The notes: generated by a model from the letters alone, not told the origin. Counted from the first letter of the stretch, positions 22,225 to 32,897 are shown. The stretch is 64,000 nucleotides of DNA from Candidatus Bathyarchaeota archaeon (GCA_963826715.1 CAWGYA010000008.1:480001-544000), one strand, 5' to 3'. Numbers and translations: made by a program.

Positions 22225-22607
22225 ATGAGGTATAAGTGCATAAAATTTGAATGCGCAGTTTGTGGCAAAGTTTCCACCATACAATTATTCATAAAAGCCA
22301 ATGGACAATTAGCCTATAGCAGAGCAAGACACTAAATTGGCAAAACCAATGGCAAACCCCAATTCAAATATCATCCTCAAAACATAGAATCTCTGAAAAC
22401 TTTATTAAAAACACAAAACATCAATCTGACAACTGAGAAGAGAATAAGTGGTCAAATAGGTCAAAACCAAAAAAATAAAAACCATGACCTAGAAAGCCAT
22501 GAGAAAACCTCTGCTCAGAAAAACATTGGCGGTTGTCGTCTAGTCTGGTTTAGGACTTTAGCCTTCCAAGCTAATGATCCCGGGTTCAAATCCCGGCGAC
22601 CGCACCA
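22225..22607 (+). pseudogene. CxxC ORF reading into tRNA-Gly, putative integrase N-terminal fragment Int(N); internal TAA at 22333
   Basis: MRYKCIKFECAVCGKVSTIQLF...SRARH*IGKTNGKPQFKYHPQ...; the frame stays open through the whole tRNA (GGCRLVWFRTLAFQANDPGFKSRRPH); TATA box CTTTATAAG at 22175. Confidence 0.5.
22529..22607 (+). tRNA. tRNA-Gly (anticodon TCC), CCA encoded, no intron
   Basis: Acceptor stem GCGGTTG/CGACCGC; anticodon arm TTAGC-CTTCCAA-GCTAA; T arm CCGGG-TTCAAAT-CCCGG. Confidence 0.97.
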
Positions 22608-22678
22608 ATTACATTACCACAAAAAACACTCTTTTATGTTGCAACCTTTCTTGATATTTTTCGGAAATCAGAACTTCT

Positions 22679-23155
22679 TCAATTGCGGTCATTCTTCCCA
22701 ACAAGAAAGTGGAAAAGCTTACCTAAGTCCTTCGGATTAACAAAGAAGGCGGGAACTTTATTGCGATAATTACGATAAGATTCACCAAACCGCTGCATCA
22801 ATTCTCTTTCCTCAATTAAAGTTACATGAATATAGAAACCAGCAAGAAAAATCGCAAACACCGCTAGTGAAAAAAGCGCCTCCAAGGCAAATCAGTATCG
22901 CGCCAGCATATGTAGGATGTCTAAGCACAGAATAGAGTTCATTCTGTTGAATTTTGCTCTCTTCAGGAAAGTACAGGTATAAAACAACCATGTAGTCTAA
23001 ACCAAAAAATTGGAGAGCTCTAGTGCACATTAAGAAACCTGTTAATAGGAATATTATTCCCAATCCGAATTTAAAGAAAAAGACTAATGGGGTAGTAATT
23101 CCAAAAAGTGTTTCTAGCGGTGTAGCAATGATTTGAAGCGGAGAAGATATCCAGA
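22679..23155 (-). pseudogene. ICMT/PEMT-family methyltransferase, C-terminal part (second frameshift near 22865)
   Basis: 'LYSVLRHPTYAG' and 'IEERELMQRFGESYRNYRNKVPAF' signatures; begins WISSPLQ at the TCCAGA repeat. Confidence 0.85.
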
Positions 23156-23160
23156 TACGA

Positions 23161-23174
23161 CTTATTCCCTATTT
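23161..23174 (+). repeat. Subterminal direct repeat CTTATTCCCTATTT, left copy
   Basis: Identical to 31507-31520. Confidence 0.9.
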
Positions 23175-23510
23175 CCATAATCTGATTATTAGTTTATGAA
23201 GGTTCTAAAAATCGTTTTTCTGCGCCATGTTTATCCTCAAGCGCCTCAAGGAATTCTCACGGTCGGCTGAATTGGTGTATTGGCTGGGATTCGAATCCTT
23301 CACACCGGAAAAATTAGGCATCGATAGAACTTCCAGAAACAATTACAAAACCTTCAAAGAGAAATACTATACCATCAGCAAATAGATAGGAGAAGTTGAA
23401 AGAATTATAGCTAAACAAGAATAAGTTTGTTTAACATATCTGAATATTTGTATTTTTAGCTTGTTTTGTGTCTAACGCTTATTTCTAGAATGGATTATAT
23501 AGTATAGTTC

Positions 23511-24110
23511 ATGTTTGGGTTTATAGCGGGCGTACCGCGCAGAATTAAGAACCTTTTCTCAAAATTCAAAAAACACTTCAGCAAGCCTCAATTTCAAAAC
23601 TTCTGCAGAACCGAGATAGGCTTAATGGTAGCTGGAAACGGAGAACACAACGTCAAAAGCGTCAATGAACTCTTCCTCGACAGAAAAAACCAAAGCAGCC
23701 TCAACAGATTCATAACAGATCCAAAATGGGACATCAAAGCTGTAACCAACCAAGCCAAAACCATTCTTCTTAGGAAGCAAGCCTGGGCACGTCATTTGAG
23801 TACAAGATCATCGACGATACCGTATGCCGCAAATACAACCAAAACACCCAGATGGTCGGTTACAACCATTCCTCAACCATGGGAACGGTGCTAAGCCACG
23901 ACTACATAACATCCCTCTAACTAAACCTCGCAGTTCCTGACGGCTTGAAGCTATATGCCAACCAGAAGAAGTGCCAAGAGAAAGGAATCGAGTTTAAGAC
24001 GGGACTGCAGTTGGTATGCGACATCATCATCGATGAGCACACTCCAGTGGCGAAGAGGACAACTTGGTTTTGAGATTCCTGGTTCATCTGCCAGGAAATG
24101 GCGTCAAATA
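23511..24110 (+). pseudogene. IS701/IS4-superfamily DDE transposase remnant
   Basis: 'FSKPQFQNF...QSSLNRFIT..KWD', frameshift to 'IIDDTVCRKY...SHDYITSL*', later 'FKTGLQL...*DSWF'; truncated. Confidence 0.8.
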
Positions 24111-24471
24111 AAAAGCTCGATTTAAGAAAGTTTAAACCAAAAAAATCAAGCCCTAAAAGTCGAATAAAAGCGTTAACTGATCAAAATGCATAGTGACTGA
24201 ATGATGAAAACATTTTTTTCACTCTAACCTCACTGCCAGCGCTGCAATGAGCCACTGCGGCTTAATGTTTGATATTTTAAAAAACCTATAATTCTCTCTT
24301 TGGTTGTTCTCATAAGCGGGAAAACATCTTTTTATTGAAACGCCTCCAAAAAAGTTTCTTGGCTGATAAACTTTCGAGCGGTTATTTCTTTTTCAGTATG
24401 ATAGTCAAGAAAGCTTGACTAAAAACCTTTTATACCTGCTTGTTTTTAGCCAGTTTGTGAATGAGGAAGCT

Positions 24472-25347
24472 ATGTTGAAGAAGACAATTGGCGTATTGGT
24501 TCTTTCCTTTGTTATACTGTTTAGCTTAGGGTTTGAAGTCGTTAACGCAAACCTTGTCGGTAACCCAAAACCCACGGAAAACATGCCTGAAATTTCCATT
24601 ACAGAGGACGGAAGTATCGACCCAAAAACAGCTCCAATACAGCGAAACGGAAGAACCTACACCCTAACGGGGGACATCACAAAATACCAACTCATAATCA
24701 AATGCGACAACATTATACTAGACGGCAAAGGCCATACCCTTCTAGGAAGAGGTATCGTCCCTGGAACGGATACTGCAATAACAATTGAATCTACGGCTGT
24801 AACTATTAAAAATTTTAGTATAGAAAAATTCCGAATAGGCATATATGCACCTAGTATTTATGGCTGCATTATCACAGAAAATACAATTAAAAGCGGTGAA
24901 CATGGGATAAGAATAGGTTATTCTGCTGAAAATAACAAGATTACTTATAACACCATATTGGGTGGTCTCCAAGATTATGGTTGTGGAATTAGCGTTTTCG
25001 GGTCTTACAATAGTGTTATCGGAAACAACATTTCTAATTTACGCTGTGGCATTGAGTTCGATTATGGTGACCATAATAGAGCTTCAAATAATACATTATC
25101 AAATATAAAGGAAACATACATCGATATTTCATCCGCTCCAGATACATTTTTAGAAAACAATATATTGCCCGTTGCTTCACCGAGCCCAACAGCCACATCT
25201 GCAACTACAACGACCAGCACACCACCGTCTGTAGGTTCTTATTACTTGTCCATTTCAACACTCCTAATATTAGGCTTGGTCGCAATAGTTGTTGTAGTCG
25301 GTTTAGTAATTCTGATAGTCTATAGAAGGTATCAAGAAAAAAGTTAG
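24472..25347 (+). CDS. NosD/CASH parallel beta-helix surface protein with C-terminal TM anchor
   Basis: 'YTLTGDI...DNIILDGKGHTL' and repeated 'GI.I....NN.I..N.I'; T/P linker; TM helix; start moved to ATG 24472. Confidence 0.85.
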   Translation: MLKKTIGVLVLSFVILFSLGFEVVNANLVGNPKPTENMPEISITEDGSIDPKTAPIQRNGRTYTLTGDITKYQLIIKCDNIILDGKGHTLLGRGIVPGTDTAITIESTAVTIKNFSIEKFRIGIYAPSIYGCIITENTIKSGEHGIRIGYSAENNKITYNTILGGLQDYGCGISVFGSYNSVIGNNISNLRCGIEFDYGDHNRASNNTLSNIKETYIDISSAPDTFLENNILPVASPSPTATSATTTTSTPPSVGSYYLSISTLLILGLVAIVVVVGLVILIVYRRYQEKS

Positions 25348-25548
25348 CACTGGCCATATGTGTCATTATTTGTTACAATTAGGATATCGTAAGATTACTA
25401 TTTTATTCATTTTTTTAACAACATCGGAAGTGGAATGGCATTTGTAGTTAATAAATGACTCCGCGGCTTCATCTACTTAAACACAAAATATGTGACAAAC
25501 AGTAAATATGAGAAGCACGCAAGCAGCGATTGTTAGGTGTGATCAATA

Positions 25549-28500
25549 GTGAAGTTGGCTAATAAAGACTTGGTTATACTTGGTTTTATTATTGCCTTGC
25601 TTACTTCCATGGTTTACGTGTATACGCTCCCTACAGCTTTTGCAGCCGAGCTAAATGTCCAAGATAAAACAATATCAGTTTTAAACGATGTAATGGGTCT
25701 AAAGACAGATCTGTATGCAATTAATCAGAGTGCGCAAAGAGATAGTCAGCATATTAGTCTTGCCCAAGAAGAAGCCAACGTTTACTTGTCTTCTAGCCAG
25801 AGCAAACTCAGAGTAAGCTGCTCCTTTGTGAATAACCAGTTACACGAGATTTATTTAAGCGATCAAGAAGGAAGTCTCGCATTAAAGCAATCCGCTGCAA
25901 ACTCGGTTGAAATGGCTAAAAGTTTCTTAGAACGATTCCAAAACTACACGCGTGACTCTTTCTATGGCTCACTTTCTGCAATACTAAACGATACCAATGG
26001 AAATTTAAACATAACTAAACCTTCAGACAACATACAACTTAGGGTTACGACTACTGACCAGAATAACTCTGATTACATTTGGACATACATTGATGCAAAC
26101 GGAACTAGAGCTGACAGAAAAAACATTGTTCTGAGCTATGAAGGAGGACAGCTGAAAGGGTTCTTAAACAATTGGCCACTGTACAAGATATCAGGTACTC
26201 CTAAGATTTCAGCGAAGGAAGCTACTGCAATAGCTATTGAAGCTTCCAAAAACTTTTCTTATCAAGTAATCTCCGAAAATGGAACATTAGAGACTGTTAC
26301 TGAATTCAAGATTGCGCCGGAGTCGTTGGGTCATGAATCAATAGCTTACCTAAACTACAATAATGAGATTGATGCACGAGGTAGAGACCCCTTTACATTG
26401 TATCCTGCATGGTATGTTCCAATAGGCTTTGACAAGTTCTACCCAGGCGATGTTTCCAGCATGGCGGTTATAATTTGGGCTGACACCGGTGAAGTGAGTG
26501 CGATGCAAGAGCTTGTCGTTGACAGCGGATTAGCACGCTCAAGCATGGATGAAACCATTAATTCCCAAGAGATTTCCAACGGATTTAGTCAACAATTACT
26601 TATTCCAATCGCAATATTCAGTGGACTTCTATTTGGCGTGATAAAATCGACGTCAAGTAGAGGCAAGATTGCTTATCGAAGATTCTGGGGGATTCTCATT
26701 TGCATATCAATTCTCTTCAGTGCATTGCTTGTAGTGTCGTCACCAAGTGTCAGCGCAAGTACACCGGCGCACAATAGCAAATCTCGAATATACTCATGTG
26801 AAGGCACAGAGGATGGTTATAATAATGATGATGCTGATACACAGGAGGAAAGCGCAACGGCAGAAGTATGCAATTACATAGGAAACCTAACTGAAGATTA
26901 TGGATATGATACGACGAACTTACATGGGTCTGGTACAGTTTATGGAGATGTATATGATAACGCTTATTCCGACGAGCAGAATTATGACCGAACGACGGTA
27001 TTTCATGCTGGTCATTTTTCATCTTTGGGTCGTTCTTATCAGGATTGCAACGGCCGCCCAATAAGAGACATAAACTTGACTGCTGAAACAGGCTTGGGTG
27101 AGCATTTCTTTACATTCTTATGGATATGTGTTCAAGCACACAATCCAGTTGTTGATGGAACTGTGAGATGTTACGATACTATCCTGCCTTCTGAGGATCC
27201 CGGAACACCCATTGGTTGGACTCATAGAGACGGCAGTGATAACCACCCATTTATGAGTTCTGATGGCTATGCACGGCCCGATTCCTATGGTCAATGCTAC
27301 ATAAGCTTCTATGGTTATTCACCTATGCTAAGCGGTTTGCCCATCAATACTTTTTTTGAGCAAACAGGAGTCACAAATTGCAAGGAGTTTATAAAGAAAT
27401 TCTACGACTATGCCCTAACTGATGGCTTATCTGTACATGATGCATTAGATCAAGCCTCAAGTGACTACTTTGGAGTGTACTACTCAAGTAGCCTACTTAG
27501 CACAGGCTATAACGCCTATTGGCCAGGTGGTGATAATCAACCTCCTTTAAACAAAACAGGCTACTATCCTAAGGATTTTTTCCCCGAGGAGCCATTGAAT
27601 CAGATGAGGGTATATGGCGATGCAAGCATACACCTTGTTCCTCAAACTGAAACTATTTCGGTTGACTATTTCAGTGGGACATACGATGTCTGGAATGAAG
27701 TTGGGGCTTCGCCGTACTTACAGGAAGGCGTCAGTAACTTCATATACGAAAGCGGAAACGATACTGGAGATGCTGAAGCTTTCTTCTACTTCTCAAACCC
27801 CACCAATGGGCAAGGCAAGATAGAATCGGTAAAACTAAAATTATTTTGCGGGCAAACCGATCCTCAAAGTCGTATGCAGTTTAATGCCTCAGTAGCGCAA
27901 GCCAAAAACACCACCCTTACCAGTTCTTCGTATGTTTTCTACCAAAACTACATAGTCACGCCCCAGTATGGCCCCTACTACGGTGATGGTGCATGGGAGG
28001 ACATCGACATCACTTCTTGGGTGAATTCCTGGGAGACACTTGACAACGTACGATTAAAATTTGTCTATAGAAGCTACTATGGAAGCTATGAGGTTAAGGT
28101 ATACACTGCACAGATAGAAATTACGTATTGGCCCACAGTTGGATGTGAAAGAGACATAGTGATTTTTGGCAACGAAACCAGTTACCCATGGCTGGGCGAC
28201 TGGGCTGATATGCTCTATAACTTTGGCTACAACTACGCCATAGTAGATCCAAGCCAGGTATCTCATGGAATAATAAGTAAAGCGCACGCGTTAATTGTTG
28301 CGCCAAACATTGTTAACGAGCTTCCTGGAAGATTTAACCTCTGGGGCGCAAGCCTTATCCAAGAAGCCAGCGTCGATATCCCGGTTTTATGCCACATGTT
28401 CAGCTACACCTCCCAAGTCTACAGGCAAGACGACACCAACTACGGTGACGGATGGGGACCTTTGCAAGCCTCGTATAAACATTCAAACGCTACCTCAGTC

Positions 28501-30192
28501 AAAGACCCCTCAGGCGCTGACATGCAGAACATAACCTTCAACATGGATTGGAGCTACTTTCCCAACGGCGCAGTCGTGCCTTTCTACAGCGATGCCGACG
28601 GTTACTTGCGAACAGTCAATTCTAATTCAGCCTACTGGAACAGCTACGCCTCACACACCATAGTGGCAAAAGAGTATGGAAGCCAAAACTACGCAGCGAT
28701 AGTGCATGGAGACTTCTATGGCGGAGAAGGTATCTTAGCAGTTGATCTTGAAGCAATTTTTTCTAATGATTGGAACTGTAGAAATCTAATTTTCTATCCT
28801 TGGCTTGATAAAGTGGACTTTGAGATTGGCTATGACAAATGTCCAACAAGCAATTACCTGAAGCATTGGTACGCTAACGGCTATGAATTCATATCATTCT
28901 CTGACATCCAAAATGCAATAACAAGCATAGACAACAACGATGATGGTGAAGTGTCAACTTTTAGCCTTGGTACAAGCGTTCAAGGAAGAGATATAACCGC
29001 TCTTCAAATAGGCTCTGGCAGCGAGGTGGTCCTGATAGTTGCTGGTATCCATGGAAATGAGAAGGCGGCAGTGGCTGGCGCACTCAACCTTGCACACGTC
29101 TTTGACAACCTGTATCAAACTGCCCCCAACTGGAAGCATATACTTGATAACCACATTCGGATTGTGCTTGTGCCCTGCAATAATCCTGATGGGTATGTAA
29201 GTAACACTCGCGAAAACGCCAACGGGGTGGATGTTAACAGAAACTATGACTATGGGTCAGACACACCTTTTAATCAGCCAGAAACAAGAGCGATAAGCAA
29301 CTTCGTGGGCAATAACACGATAAAAGCATATGTGGGTTTTCACATGGGAGAAGCCCAGGTATACTTAGTTGAGGCTACTACAACAGGCATTAACAGACAT
29401 GACTACCCATACAGGGACCAAGCGTACATGCTTGGTTACAGAACAAACGAGACGTTGGTTAACGAAGCAAAAATTTTCCATGGATTTTACATTCGACTTC
29501 AAGGTGTAGGAGACTCTCAAACGTTAATGGGTCAGGCGTTCAACGGAACTCAGGCGTTGCATGTGATGCTAAATGAGGATTGCCCAGCGGTTACTTTTGA
29601 AACGCTACCGGGTTTTGATGGGAATGATCCTTCTAAGTCTTCTGCAAGACTTATGGGCACTTCAATTATTCAGATTACGGTTGTTGGAATGGAGCTTTCT
29701 CATTGGCGTTATGAAACGTTGGTTCCTTGGGGTGAGGGAGCATATCTTGAGTTTAGTTATCTGTCTGGCGGTACTTCTCACTACTTAAAGGTCGATGACA
29801 ACACGGATGTGGGAGATGGCGATAGTACTTGGGTTGGTTCAAACTCTTACAATATTGAGCGTGACACCTATTCCGTTCCAAGTTTAAGTGGTTATAGTTC
29901 AGGGATGAGTATTGGCAAAGTTGCCGTTTATGTAGTGGCTAGGGGTACAACTGGGCCTAGTATTGTTTTGCCTGCGTTGCAGACGCAGTCTACTTTCTAT
30001 TCGGGAACTGACCAGAACATTGTTATTACTTATTCAAGGGTTAACTATACGTGGCCGGTTAATCCCAACACTGGGGCGGCATGGACTAACAGTGACATCG
30101 ATAGTCTGCAGGTTGGCCAGAAAGCCGATCATGCTGCACTAAGAGTGACTGAAGTGTATGCTGTGATAGAATATGACCAACTTCACAGTTGA
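25549..30192 (+). CDS. 1547-aa modular secreted protein: PepSY-like region, internal TM + signal peptide, clan-CD-like domain, beta-rich domains, M14 zinc carboxypeptidase
   Basis: M14 motifs GIHGNE (H1168/E1171), NPDG, RENANGVDVNRNY, QPETRA, GFH (H1265), TFE (E1351); see findings for the other domains. Confidence 0.85.
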   Translation: MKLANKDLVILGFIIALLTSMVYVYTLPTAFAAELNVQDKTISVLNDVMGLKTDLYAINQSAQRDSQHISLAQEEANVYLSSSQSKLRVSCSFVNNQLHEIYLSDQEGSLALKQSAANSVEMAKSFLERFQNYTRDSFYGSLSAILNDTNGNLNITKPSDNIQLRVTTTDQNNSDYIWTYIDANGTRADRKNIVLSYEGGQLKGFLNNWPLYKISGTPKISAKEATAIAIEASKNFSYQVISENGTLETVTEFKIAPESLGHESIAYLNYNNEIDARGRDPFTLYPAWYVPIGFDKFYPGDVSSMAVIIWADTGEVSAMQELVVDSGLARSSMDETINSQEISNGFSQQLLIPIAIFSGLLFGVIKSTSSRGKIAYRRFWGILICISILFSALLVVSSPSVSASTPAHNSKSRIYSCEGTEDGYNNDDADTQEESATAEVCNYIGNLTEDYGYDTTNLHGSGTVYGDVYDNAYSDEQNYDRTTVFHAGHFSSLGRSYQDCNGRPIRDINLTAETGLGEHFFTFLWICVQAHNPVVDGTVRCYDTILPSEDPGTPIGWTHRDGSDNHPFMSSDGYARPDSYGQCYISFYGYSPMLSGLPINTFFEQTGVTNCKEFIKKFYDYALTDGLSVHDALDQASSDYFGVYYSSSLLSTGYNAYWPGGDNQPPLNKTGYYPKDFFPEEPLNQMRVYGDASIHLVPQTETISVDYFSGTYDVWNEVGASPYLQEGVSNFIYESGNDTGDAEAFFYFSNPTNGQGKIESVKLKLFCGQTDPQSRMQFNASVAQAKNTTLTSSSYVFYQNYIVTPQYGPYYGDGAWEDIDITSWVNSWETLDNVRLKFVYRSYYGSYEVKVYTAQIEITYWPTVGCERDIVIFGNETSYPWLGDWADMLYNFGYNYAIVDPSQVSHGIISKAHALIVAPNIVNELPGRFNLWGASLIQEASVDIPVLCHMFSYTSQVYRQDDTNYGDGWGPLQASYKHSNATSVKDPSGADMQNITFNMDWSYFPNGAVVPFYSDADGYLRTVNSNSAYWNSYASHTIVAKEYGSQNYAAIVHGDFYGGEGILAVDLEAIFSNDWNCRNLIFYPWLDKVDFEIGYDKCPTSNYLKHWYANGYEFISFSDIQNAITSIDNNDDGEVSTFSLGTSVQGRDITALQIGSGSEVVLIVAGIHGNEKAAVAGALNLAHVFDNLYQTAPNWKHILDNHIRIVLVPCNNPDGYVSNTRENANGVDVNRNYDYGSDTPFNQPETRAISNFVGNNTIKAYVGFHMGEAQVYLVEATTTGINRHDYPYRDQAYMLGYRTNETLVNEAKIFHGFYIRLQGVGDSQTLMGQAFNGTQALHVMLNEDCPAVTFETLPGFDGNDPSKSSARLMGTSIIQITVVGMELSHWRYETLVPWGEGAYLEFSYLSGGTSHYLKVDDNTDVGDGDSTWVGSNSYNIERDTYSVPSLSGYSSGMSIGKVAVYVVARGTTGPSIVLPALQTQSTFYSGTDQNIVITYSRVNYTWPVNPNTGAAWTNSDIDSLQVGQKADHAALRVTEVYAVIEYDQLHS

Positions 30193-30193
30193 C

Positions 30194-30248
30194 TTTTTTT
30201 TCTTTTTGAACACCGTATTTCGCTTACCCAAAAATATTACGGTGTTCA
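30194..30248 (+). terminator. Oligo-T terminator followed by an 11-bp inverted repeat
   Basis: T-tract right after the stop; TGAACACCGTA (30207-30217) and TACGGTGTTCA (30238-30248). Confidence 0.6.
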
Positions 30249-31506
30249 GCAAGGATGGTGCAGAATACAATTAAACTGGCGGTCGGCTAAAACGAGCGAC
30301 ATGGTTTTATGTCGGCGCTAATATCCTTAGTTGTTGTATTGTCGTCGTTTATTCGCATAGCGGTTCTTGACTGAGTTGTCCCAAACCACCAGGAACGCGC
30401 GCCTTAGAGAATTAACATTTGTTGCTAACAAGCGTATGTAGTCGTTTGTTGGTTGGCAGAATCTTGTGAATCGTAAGAACACCTTCCATAATACTTGCTA
30501 AAAACTAAATCAATTATTTCTTATAATCAAGGTGCAATAAGTTGTTTTATCTGCCGCAGAGTTAGGGAAGTTGTTAGTGAACCTTGTCGGCGCTGTAAAT
30601 CAACTTTTTTTGTCCAACCTGAAAACACCGAGCTTATTTTTTGCTAACTGCAACAGCTTTAAAGAATAGAAGGTACCTGTTTTTTGCTCTGCGGGGAAGT
30701 TAGGTTTTAAAAAGGAAGGGCGCAAACATTGCCTTAGAAAATTATTTTTTTGCAGTTAATTGGTGATCTTTTAGAAAATAAAAAAGCCCAAAGGCTAAGC
30801 TCTGGAACTGATAGGTTAGGTATTGACTGAGCCGATATAGGATTAACTATTGCTTAGAGTTGAGGTTATCAAATGAACTGTCAGTAATGTTTGTAGGCTT
30901 TTAGTTTGACGGCTCATATCTGAGAAAAGGAATATCTTTGAATTATAGTTTACTAAGTTCGTTTTTGAAAAAAAATGTTCACACTAGGCAGATGGAAAAG
31001 GTGTAGTTTTTGGATTAACTTATGTCTGAACCCTGCATTTTATGATGAAAATTGTTGGAACTCAGGAATATTCTGGCTAGGATTCTGCGATTATTTCGGG
31101 CGAATTGTCATTCGATTCATCCTCATTAATCATGAGTTCTGGTTTCTTGAAAGCTCGATCTAGAACAGTAATATTAACGCGAGATGGTTACCTTGAAGTG
31201 TCGCTATTGAGATTGAAGTGAGCGAATACATCGCTTAGATTTTTGTTCTTGCATTGTCAAGCCTGTAGCTTATTATTCTCTCTTGTATCCCCAAAATGGT
31301 TTTTTATGGTGATTATATGCATTAAACGCTTTTCACCATAGAATAGAGCTTGAAAACACCCGCATTCGCGTAAAACTAACGGCTTTTCGCCTCATTCGCG
31401 CCAATATGTAAAAACGCTTATTTACAAAAACGCGAGAATACGTTTTTGTTTACCATACTATAAACTATACTTTAAGGGCAATAATGCAAATCCCATGTTT
31501 AACCGC

Positions 31507-31532
31507 CTTATTCCCTATTTAATTCCCGCTTT
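31507..31532 (+). repeat. Subterminal direct repeat CTTATTCCCTATTT, right copy, plus degenerate tandem copy TAATTCCCGCTTT
   Basis: Identical to 23161-23174; the second copy is offset by 12 bp. Confidence 0.85.
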
Positions 31533-31560
31533 CTCCATAAAAAACGCTGAAACTCGCTCT

Positions 31561-31945
31561 TCCAGAAAGATAGCGCAAATGAATAAAACGGAATGTATTC
31601 ACTAAGGGCAACCGTTAATATCCAAACTATCCCTCCAAAGCCAAAAAGAAACACCCGCTGATACGCCACCGATCCATACTTTGCTTTCAGACGGTTTCGC
31701 CAGAACCAAAGTTGCCACACAAGCAATAGACCAACAACCTCGACAATTAATACACCGAATAATGGAAACAAGGAAAGTAATACCCCGTTTACTTCCTCGA
31801 CGCTTAAGATAGTGGGTAATGAATCAAACGTGATAAAAATAACAAGAGCTAAGGCAATCATGCAAATTAGGTAAATTGGTAAAAAAACAATTTTTTTACC
31901 GCAAAGAGCAGGTAGTTTTTCTCGAAATTTTCTGTATCCTTTTAT
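31561..31945 (-). pseudogene. ICMT/PEMT-family methyltransferase, N-terminal part
   Basis: (I)KGYRKFREKLP...TM helices...SFALSFW ends at the TCCAGA repeat; the listed ORF tail KSEFQRF... is read-through into the insert. Confidence 0.8.
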
Positions 31946-32199
31946 GGGAAAGAATAAAACACAGTACCCCTTTGCTTAAATTATGATTTTTTGATTTGCT
32001 CATCAAACTGGCGATTTGAACGGAAATCTCATACATGACCACTCTTTTATGAAGAAATAGTTTGTTATAATTATTTTGATTTAATTTCTTGATGGATAGC
32101 GCAGTATTCCTAGAAAATAAGTTATTGCCTTCTCACAACTGTTTGGAGGGAAAAGGTGAAAAGCAACCGCGAATAATACCACCTAAGGAGACATCGAAA

Positions 32200-32420: not shown

Positions 32421-32897
32421 TTATGGCAGCATTGTAGCGGTAATGATTGTAACATCAGTTATGGGTTTATCGCGTGAGTTTTTTTTCACCTTTGCGATTT
32501 TGTCAACAACATCCATCCCCGACACAACATTTCCAAAGACAGGATGTTTACCATCTAAGAAATTGTTGTCCACTAAATTGATGAAAAATTGACTGCTCCC
32601 TGTATTTGGACCTGCATTTGCCATTGCAATGGTTCCACGTTGATTGCGGTTGCTCCGTGTAAATTCATCAGGTATATTAGGGATGGAGGGATCGCCGTAT
32701 CCAGTTCCTGTAGGGTCGCCGCCTTGAATCATAAAGCCATCTATGACACGATGAAAGATTACTCCGTTAAATGTTCCCTTCAGAACAAGGTTTTTGAAAT
32801 TATTTGCGGTTATTGGCATGTCACTGCGTAAAGCGATTGTTATGTCGCCCATGTTTGTGTGAAGTAAAACTTTTGTTGGGTTTGTTTGATTAGACAT
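32421..32897 (-). CDS. Cyclophilin-type peptidyl-prolyl isomerase
   Basis: 'FHRVIDGFMIQGGD', 'AMANAGPNTGSSQFFIN', 'HPVFG'. Confidence 0.95.
   Translation of the reverse strand: MSNQTNPTKVLLHTNMGDITIALRSDMPITANNFKNLVLKGTFNGVIFHRVIDGFMIQGGDPTGTGYGDPSIPNIPDEFTRSNRNQRGTIAMANAGPNTGSSQFFINLVDNNFLDGKHPVFGNVVSGMDVVDKIAKVKKNSRDKPITDVTIITATMLP

Follow-up and report, generated by a model that had tools for sequence, protein, structure and literature searches.

An integrase-less 8.4-kb island in a Bathyarchaeia methyltransferase gene shares its putative attachment arms with predicted double jelly-roll proviruses

How does a block of cargo DNA that encodes no recombinase come to lie exactly at one short word of a chromosomal gene? 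The question is raised by a locus of a Candidatus Bathyarchaeota archaeon (G000, a 2.64-Mb genome, 96% complete), in which a methyltransferase gene of the ICMT/PEMT type is cut exactly at one TCCAGA hexamer by an insert of 8,405 bp. The locus lies in the window, the whole stretch of 64,000 nucleotides analysed here (G000:C8:480001-544000), and coordinates given without a contig name refer to it. A sequence-only reading of the window had described the insert as a non-autonomous, recombinase-mobilised element, possibly of an undescribed class. By comparing it with 120 genomes of the genus (Bathy-6 Bathyarchaeia / Candidatus Bathycorpusculum) and with metagenome contigs, we conclude that it is very probably an island made by a tyrosine integrase, derived from a virus and now non-autonomous.

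The interrupted gene is recognizable on both sides of the insert (Table 1). Its 3' half matches PF04191 (PEMT, E 1.9e-5) and PF04140 (ICMT, E 1e-3), and the 5' part corresponds to the N-terminal portion of a membrane methyltransferase. Intact orthologs of 288 aa in G014 (...APTFWAASPLQ) and 290 aa in G022 (...APTFWSNSPLK) align without a gap at the junction, so that removal of 23156-31560 together with one TCCAGA restores the frame exactly. The precise splitting of a single gene at TCCAGA is thus confirmed, the orthologs being colinear with the two halves. Among 61 related genomes, five (G000 included) were matched by the 3' half as a query; that of G060 is a weak match (E 2.5e-4, 28% identity).

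The ends of the insert are not inverted repeats: the longest inverted word has 7 letters, and 10 of 40 positions agree in register. An identical 14-mer, CTTATTCCCTATTT, is found in direct orientation 5 bp inside the left end (23161-23174) and 40 bp inside the right end (31507-31520). The right copy belongs to a series of three direct repeats (31488-31500, 31507-31520 and 31521-31534), and the copy that follows it is degenerate, with the TTCCC cores 12 bp apart. This description of the ends, given already by the sequence-only reading, holds. The 2.64-Mb genome has no exact copy of the 14-mer besides these two, two further and unrelated places being added when up to one mismatch is allowed, and a shared direct word of at least 14 letters arose in 0 of 5000 shuffles of the 100-bp ends. 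No second copy of the ends was found in G000 by the 14-mer search or by blastn of 22600-32050, which returned the locus itself, a NosD paralog (69%) and two matches of 31-32 bp to a promoter motif.

The same ends recur elsewhere in the genus. The right-arm pattern GGGCAAT-N24-CTTAWT-N46-49-TCCAGA is present in 5 of the 120 genomes (G000, G080, G091, G101 and G114) and its reversed control in none, and all five elements have a left end, TCCAGA-N5-CTTAWT, 7.8-13.5 kb away in the same orientation. A search with the ends therefore gives no sibling in the same genome and four more complete elements in the genus, two of which encode a tyrosine recombinase. The common anatomy is TCCAGA-N5-14mer on the left, where the arm has one repeat unit, and GGGCAAT-N24-14mer-N39/40-TCCAGA on the right, where the arm is made of three direct repeats of a 12-14-nt unit; the spacing is constant in the five elements (N5 on the left, 39-40 bp on the right, GGGCAAT 90-91 bp from the element end). 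TCCAGA is identical at 10 of 10 junctions, and the target-site sequence beyond the hexamer is unrelated between elements. The 14-mer is of two types, TCCC in the window and G091 elements and TTTAC in those of G080, G101 and G114, and its left and right copies covary, with 12-14 of 14 positions identical within each element. Such covariation would be expected if the arms held recombinase-binding sites co-evolving with their enzyme, and the repeats may well be such sites.

BLAST of the two ends over the 120 genomes gave convincing matches in G023 and G116 for the left end and in G091 and G114 for the right; the remaining rows (4 left, 9 right), of 22-31 bp and E 1e-3 to 1e-2, were treated as chance. 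The left arms of G023 (core present) and G116 (core degenerate) are solitary, with no right end within about 48 kb. Large genes for PQQ-propeller/Big-domain surface proteins lie 0.2-6 kb past the left arm at these two loci (L028 8057-15066 in G023, L029 2446-8390 in G116) and recall the surface cargo of the window and G114 elements. In IMG/VR, neither a relative of the sibling integrase nor the right-arm pattern was found.

The contents of the five complete elements fall into two kinds. Those of G091 (12,280 bp) and G080 (13,513 bp) encode an integrase, a capsid protein and a packaging-type ATPase, and have six proteins in common in the same order. No integrase, and no viral gene apart from a vestige in the window element, was found in the other three, which are the window element with its NosD and M14 cargo, the element of G101 (L144 4404-17494; 13,086 bp) and that of G114 (7,772 bp). 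The G101 cargo is a complete type I-B CRISPR-Cas system (cas6b, cas1, cas2, cas4, cas8b, cas7, cas5, cas3 and a 21-repeat array), whose 20 spacers had no match, at E up to 0.01, in the loci analysed or in G000. The G114 cargo consists of an ABC-2 transporter and fragments of PQQ-propeller and InlB-repeat surface proteins. Both insertions have an uninterrupted counterpart: the G101 site is empty in five relatives, indicating a clean insertion, and the G114 element splits a gene of ~299 aa whose intact paralog, 94% identical and situated on the same contig, is colinear across the junction, the two flanks overlapping on it by about the length of the core.

The two proviral elements identify the likely enzyme. 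Their integrase, of 437-468 aa, belongs to a family found in 20 of the 120 genomes; the species-genome collection has it at 24 loci, which with few exceptions carry the label Bathyarchaeia or that of a wider archaeal rank. The G091 protein itself has no Pfam match, and 5 of 13 family members match PF00589. The family profile matches archaeal XerA with E 0.002, aligning Arg-I, the beta-hairpin Lys, His-II and the Tyr region, and R256, K281, H354 and Y390 are invariant in an alignment of 13 homologs (A1). Among the matches listed in a Foldseek search of the PDB with the AlphaFold2 (AF2) model (mean predicted local distance difference test, pLDDT, 80), ranks 1-40 are tyrosine recombinases, the best with E 1.5e-5. 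Sequence and model together predict a divergent tyrosine recombinase, and the earlier proposal of a recombinase-driven element, as opposed to a DDE transposon, is borne out by its presence in siblings with the same core and arms. Three length classes can be discerned in the family (about 420, 437-470 and 513-545 aa), the long class being found near second double jelly-roll capsid genes (G091 C1:147-154 kb and G134 C3:140-147 kb). A 42%-identical integrase in G035 has no such arms within the 34 kb around it.

The capsid assignment rests on a 294-aa protein of the G091 element, modelled with a double jelly-roll capsid fold (pLDDT 88; predicted template modelling score, pTM, 0.85) that matches PM2 P2, the STIV capsid protein and PRD1 P3 with E 3e-14 to 6e-13; the G091 ATPase matches phrog_2666 (E 8e-13). 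Because they combine integrase, capsid and ATPase genes, the G091 and G080 elements are, on these predictions, small proviruses of the double jelly-roll lineage. Such capsid proteins were found in 3 of the 120 genomes (G080, G091 with two copies, and G134) and none in G000, G101 or G114. A capsid protein 80% identical to that of G091 (P0003) lies on a contig of 12,290 bp, close to the 12,280 bp of the G091 provirus, and this contig may be a complete free viral genome.

A metagenome contig of 1,392 bp (L175) ties the two ends of the window element to each other. In this contig a right arm, a single TCCAGA and a left arm are contiguous. The right arm is 75% identical over 374 bp to that of the window (31200-31566), and the sequence that follows TCCAGA is 79% identical over 92 bp to the left arm (compared with 23150-23239). 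An open reading frame (ORF) upstream encodes a homolog of the right-terminal gene product of the G091 provirus (43% identity, E 9e-53). A free or circular form would be expected to have this arrangement, as would a junction between tandem copies. The joined arms of L175 show that each end of the window element corresponds to one half of a single viral attachment region, about 450 bp long, in which TCCAGA lies between the halves. The right-arm pattern was matched by 56 stretches of public metagenome contigs, about the number expected by chance from a hand estimate, and only L175 among them has the family arms. Eight similar contigs matching the pattern (L167, L179, L182, L198, L199, L201, L219 and L222) were set aside; six of them have N5-CTTATT after the core, none of the eight shows arm repeats, long ORFs or similarity to the viral proteins, and they may represent an unrelated repeat. 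The window element is better described as an integrase-less derivative of a double jelly-roll provirus attachment module than as an undescribed class of element.

The interior of the window element is a mixture of cargo and remnants. The sequence-only reading had found no intact recombinase inside, and indeed neither an integrase ORF nor a read-through match to one was found in 23150-31566; of the 19 matches to PF00589 in G000, 17 exceed the cut-off and none lies inside the element. Capsid and packaging ATPase genes, present in G091 and G080, are likewise not found, and tblastx and blastp of the element against those of G091, G080 and G101 returned the arms only. Next to the right arm, the nucleotide alignment with L175 enters the L175 ORF by about 85 bp, and there the window reads RIISYRLDNARTKI* in read-through translation against RIVGYRLDDARAKKL in L175. 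With the L175 ORF as query, tblastn had no match in the element; with the G091 protein E was only 0.015, the search being a small one. Judged from the nucleotide alignment and the read-through translation, the element appears to keep a decayed stub of a viral gene. The sequence-only reading had overlooked this vestige, as well as an insertion sequence (IS) remnant of the IS701 family and two lesions in the methyltransferase gene.

The IS701 remnant, which has ends of its own, starts 274 bp in from the left end. It matches NCBIfam NF049999 with E 1.6e-5, under the curated cut-off, and is 79-83% identical in nucleotides to copies in G132, G029, G020, G093 and G002; searches of G000 with its DNA and protein sequences gave no further copy. 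The truncated IS abuts the cargo, which hints that illegitimate or IS-linked recombination may have brought the cargo between the arms. As stated earlier, Pfam matches support a NosD surface protein and a giant secreted peptidase as cargo (Table 1). This NosD-M14 pair recurs with its palindromic motif in G081 at 73% nucleotide identity, without arms and among genes syntenic with G000 C8:442-449 kb, and is therefore, on present sequences, an accessory module that exists outside such elements. The promoter-like motif with the palindrome GTCAAGAAAGCTTGAC, common to G081, has short matches of 88-94% in many genus genomes and occurs twice more in G000 (C8:1160079-1160109 and C2:98752-98783); secreted-protein genes probably share it as a promoter or operator. 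In the non-coding spacer, a motif of 35-70 bp (about 30796-30865) matches 17 other genus genomes at 75-91% identity and no Rfam family at the gathering threshold. Upstream of the window, G000:C8:477162-479432 contains the paralog of the NosD cargo gene (69% nucleotide identity), adjoining a decayed tyrosine-integrase pseudogene (PF00589, E 0.017, 7 stops); the two may be another old island.

Table 1. Features of the split methyltransferase locus and of the element within it (window coordinates)
Feature	Coordinates	Strand	Evidence and remarks
tRNA-Gly(TCC)	22529..22607	+	ARAGORN and Rfam; synteny with G101 and G014; one border of the variable interval
Methyltransferase, 3' half	22679..23155	-	Translation, begins WISSPLQIIATPLE; Pfam; orthologs; frameshift near 22870-22875
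Left TCCAGA core	23150..23155	+	Proposed crossover site
Left arm (attL side)	23156..23429	+	First ~90 bp conserved in siblings; 79% over 92 bp to L175
IS701-family remnant	23430..24116	+	Truncated, frameshifted; first ~685 bp of ~1.3 kb
Promoter-like motif	24395..24434	+	Palindrome GTCAAGAAAGCTTGAC, then TATA-like box; upstream of the NosD-like gene
Cargo gene 1, NosD/right-handed beta-helix surface protein	24415..25347	+	PF05048, PF13229, E about 1e-12; C-terminal membrane anchor
Cargo gene 2, secreted M14 zinc carboxypeptidase, 1547 aa	25549..30192	+	PF00246, E 2.2e-26
Non-coding spacer	30193..31199		No ORF of at least 60 aa except 30975-31163
Vestige, 5' end of viral right-terminal gene	31200..31290	-	In-frame stops; L175 alignment
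Right arm (attR side)	31200..31560	+	GGGCAAT at 31476-31482; three direct repeats; then CCATAAAAAA box
Right TCCAGA core	31561..31566	+	Second copy of the hexamer
Methyltransferase, 5' half	31561..31945	-	Translation, ends ...YIPFYSFALSFW (...IPFYSFALSFW); orthologs; start codon lost
Cyclophilin-type peptidyl-prolyl isomerase (PPIase) gene	32421..32897	-	G101 ortholog PF00160, E 1e-49; synteny; far border of the variable interval

The choice of targets appears to be loose, as G000 contains 1,464 copies of TCCAGA on both strands, about one every 1.8 kb, and identity of the 6-bp core appears sufficient for targeting. The elements lie in protein-coding genes or intergenic DNA and not in tRNA genes, with no tRNA at the G091, G080 and G114 loci. 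The earlier claim of non-tRNA targets stands in this respect, but a tRNA-Gly(TCC) gene ends 72 bp from the split methyltransferase gene (543 bp from the left core), and the G101 sibling lies in the same interval between this tRNA gene and the PPIase gene. The interval is empty (about 75 bp) in G104, G023, G012, G119 and G010; in G014 it contains the methyltransferase gene plus 3.2 kb, in the window the methyltransferase gene with the nested 8.4-kb element, and in G101 the 13-kb att-flanked CRISPR-Cas element, its core 72 bp from the tRNA gene. With two elements landed there, it is at least a tolerated landing zone. No methyltransferase remnants were detected at the G101 site at E up to 10.

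Several details of this interval may be recorded here. Compared with G014, the methyltransferase segment is inverted relative to the tRNA and PPIase genes, and the homology to G014 reaches precisely as far as the missing start codon. The 12-bp word CACTCTTTTATG stands as a direct repeat at 22628-22639 and 32040-32051; G101 has a similar motif upstream of its PPIase gene. These features may mark another integration or rearrangement. In G015 the methyltransferase ortholog (G015:C19:208347-208681), beside the same PPIase gene, extends over three frames, and the gene appears, from its sequence, to be decaying independently in that lineage.

The state of the locus in the environment was read from contigs of four runs of one soil study, which may include the source sample of the window. 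In one X1 contig, of depth 2.9, position 23149 is followed directly by 31561, with 8,411 bases left out, the filled form having a depth of about 4-6. On the face of it, the filled and the empty allele both occur among close strains. The left junction of the filled form is bridged by an X4 contig (23108-23260, 48 + 105 letters, 0 differences), and X1 covers the element in 30 of 30 bins at near identity. The X1 and X2 contigs break at 23145-23153, as would fit a graph fork between the two alleles. The interior of the element looks old: the IS fragment stands alone in G000, its nearest copies elsewhere being 79-83% identical, and the viral vestige has stops. A polymorphic insertion combined with an old-looking interior favours recent action of an integrase in trans on a cassette that was already integrase-less. 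The circular junction of the window element itself was not seen in the contigs, which drop rare forms.

We propose the following explanation. The ends of the cassette would be the halves of the viral attachment site (attP) of small (12-13.5 kb) double jelly-roll viruses of Bathy-6 Bathyarchaeia, this attP consisting of one TCCAGA core flanked by directly repeated arm sites. A virus-type tyrosine integrase would have recombined the attP of the cassette with the chromosomal TCCAGA in the methyltransferase gene, leaving one copy of the core at each junction; it would have been supplied in trans, because neither the cassette nor G000 encodes one. In the interior the viral genes would be gone, leaving the promoter, the NosD-like and M14 genes, the orphan IS701 fragment and the vestige of a viral gene. 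We infer the binding of the repeats by the integrase, the crossover within TCCAGA and the insertion in the present integrase-less form from the evidence given above. That the element is non-autonomous, as first suggested, is supported by its gene content, while for its arrival as a cassette served in trans we regard the chances as evenly balanced.

A number of observations weigh against such an arrival. The activity of the sibling integrase is a prediction, and in 13 of 13 family members K358 occupies the Arg-II position and T381 the His/Trp-III position. No integrase of the sibling family was found in G000, which leaves no helper virus or integrase there, and the only family integrases of G101 and G114 are of the 513-aa type and on other contigs, these two genomes having no capsid gene. 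The same cassette was not found at a second site or in a second genome among the 120. An empty allele, which the earlier reading proposed to look for, is represented by the X1 contig, but the short side of this contig has 26 letters, under the 31-letter bridging rule, and the contig has three differences at 31613-31664 and may come from a somewhat diverged strain. The methyltransferase gene has two lesions besides the insertion, a frameshift in the 3' half near the A-run 22870-22875, with no indel there in the covering short-read contigs, and the absence of its ATG (TTT CCC ATA in the window against ATG CCC ATA in G014); these suggest either that the disruption is old or that the gene had died beforehand. 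Finally, the internal deletions seen in the vestige and the truncated IS could have occurred in place after integration of a whole virus.

The last point leads to the other reading in which the island is made by an integrase and derived from a virus, namely that a full provirus like those represented by G091 and L175 inserted with its own integrase, and that deletions, the IS701 element and the NosD/M14 genes replaced its interior without the island ever having been a mobile cassette, along the route of the cis-mobilizable elements (CIMEs). We consider this possible, though doubtful. It would account for the vestige of the viral right-terminal gene beside the right arm, for the truncated IS that abuts the cargo and for the frameshift and lost start codon of the methyltransferase gene, which suggest time since the disruption; the solitary left arms of G023 and G116 show that such decay takes place, the cassette is unseen at a second site, and the NosD-M14 pair stands without arms in the chromosomal context of G081. 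However, it requires several independent events that spared both arms in three of the five complete elements, each with unrelated cargo. The insertion moreover appears polymorphic among close strains, leaving little time, and the IS has no other copy in G000. An extension of the cassette explanation, which we offer as unlikely, is that the integrase-less elements are satellites or att cassettes of these viruses: at 7.8-13.1 kb they do not exceed the 12.3-13.5 kb of the helper, would keep only the ~450-bp attP arms, would be inserted and excised by the viral integrase in trans at any TCCAGA, perhaps packaged by the helper, and would shuttle modules of benefit to the host (surface enzymes, an ABC transporter and a complete type I-B CRISPR-Cas system) between cells.

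Explanations that dispense with a viral integrase fare worse. The position of both the window and the G101 elements between tRNA-Gly(TCC) and the same PPIase gene, with contents that differ among G014, G101, the window and five empty genomes, could be read as a hot spot of homologous recombination whose conserved flanks are the arms. This is very unlikely and largely refuted by the occurrence of the same arms at unrelated loci without a nearby tRNA gene (G091, G080 and G114) and joined in L175; in addition, the window insertion restores the frame exactly and the G101 site is without trace of the methyltransferase gene, and the two elements differ in arm subtype. A DDE transposon, related to IS701 or not, with a strict choice of TCCAGA and a 6-bp target-site duplication would explain the direct hexamers that flank the insert and the IS701-family transposase fragment inside it, but we hold it to be extremely improbable given the lack of terminal inverted repeats noted above, the internal position of the IS fragment with its own ends, the identity of the hexamer in all elements, and the siblings, which encode a tyrosine recombinase and show no transposase among the ORFs scanned with Pfam or PHROGs. 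To a chimeric join in assembly we give next to no credence, even though G000 is a metagenome-assembled genome and the X1 and X2 contigs break at the left junction. A misassembly is contradicted by the bridging X4 contig, by the complete coverage in X1, by the same junction anatomy in four other genomes and by the fit of the breaks to a graph fork.

Little has been described of the mobile elements of Bathyarchaeia, a group of abundant, uncultured archaea. The locus gives a defined attachment site, with a 6-bp core and covarying arm repeats, together with a divergent tyrosine integrase predicted to act on it, and provides a simple sequence signature for finding further islands. In three of the five complete elements, arms of apparently viral origin bound non-viral cargo, including a whole CRISPR-Cas system. 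If it is true that such cassettes move in trans, they would represent a route of gene flow missed by searches based on integrases or hallmark genes, because they carry neither. The terms 'double jelly-roll' and 'Varidnaviria' are absent from a paper on Bathyarchaeia viruses (PMC10848311), the available part of another mentions only a siphovirus-like provirus (PMC11697101), and a third, as far as its available text goes, assigns 3 of 655 archaeal provirus groups to Varidnaviria without naming hosts (PMC13573593). In the available portions of this literature, neither double jelly-roll viruses of Bathyarchaeia nor integrase-less islands bounded by viral att arms are described.

Among known systems, the nearest in organization are the CIMEs of streptococcal integrative and conjugative element (ICE) families, as defined in the available part of PMC5704250. 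Like them, the window element has both att sites of an autonomous family and a cargo but no integrase, and would need the integrase of a related element. Unlike those described there, it has an archaeal host, its parent would be a double jelly-roll virus and not a conjugative element, and its target is a 6-bp core instead of a specific gene end. Neither mobilization by accretion nor a tandem was seen here. Integrated elements of Thaumarchaeota, in the available part of PMC6563490, have short att sites, insert into tRNA genes, intergenic DNA and protein-coding genes, and include double jelly-roll proviruses and cryptic elements with complete type I-B CRISPR-Cas. The present elements belong to another archaeal class, and the methyltransferase gene is cut mid-way, whereas in that part of PMC6563490 the 3'-distal parts of genes are used and no element is described that shares the att arms of a virus while being integrase-less.

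The capsid fold predicted for the siblings resembles those of PM2, STIV and PRD1 (template modelling (TM) score 0.65-0.74 at 13-15% sequence identity), as do their small genome and packaging ATPase, whereas the window element has none of those genes. Its IS701 fragment is an internal passenger matching the N-terminal region of that family and has no part in the element ends. Archaeal elements of the SSV and pNOB8 type target tRNA genes, whereas the att core of the window element is within a protein-coding gene. Attachment sites of the lambda and Tn916 type combine a short crossover core with direct arm-type repeats. The sites proposed here are similar in having a core with asymmetric direct repeats, one at N5 and three at about 40-75 bp, within an attP of ~450 bp; they differ in that the sibling integrase is very divergent, its nearest member having no Pfam match and the family having Lys and Thr for Arg-II and His-III, and that its binding is predicted. 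Integron cassettes and the Xer-exploiting integrative mobile elements (IMEX) are recombinase-less cargo moved by a tyrosine recombinase in trans. The window cargo, too, lacks its own recombinase and seems to have been inserted by site-specific recombination, but where those systems use one attC or dif-like site and an enzyme of the host or platform, here two arms of a putative viral attP flank the cargo.

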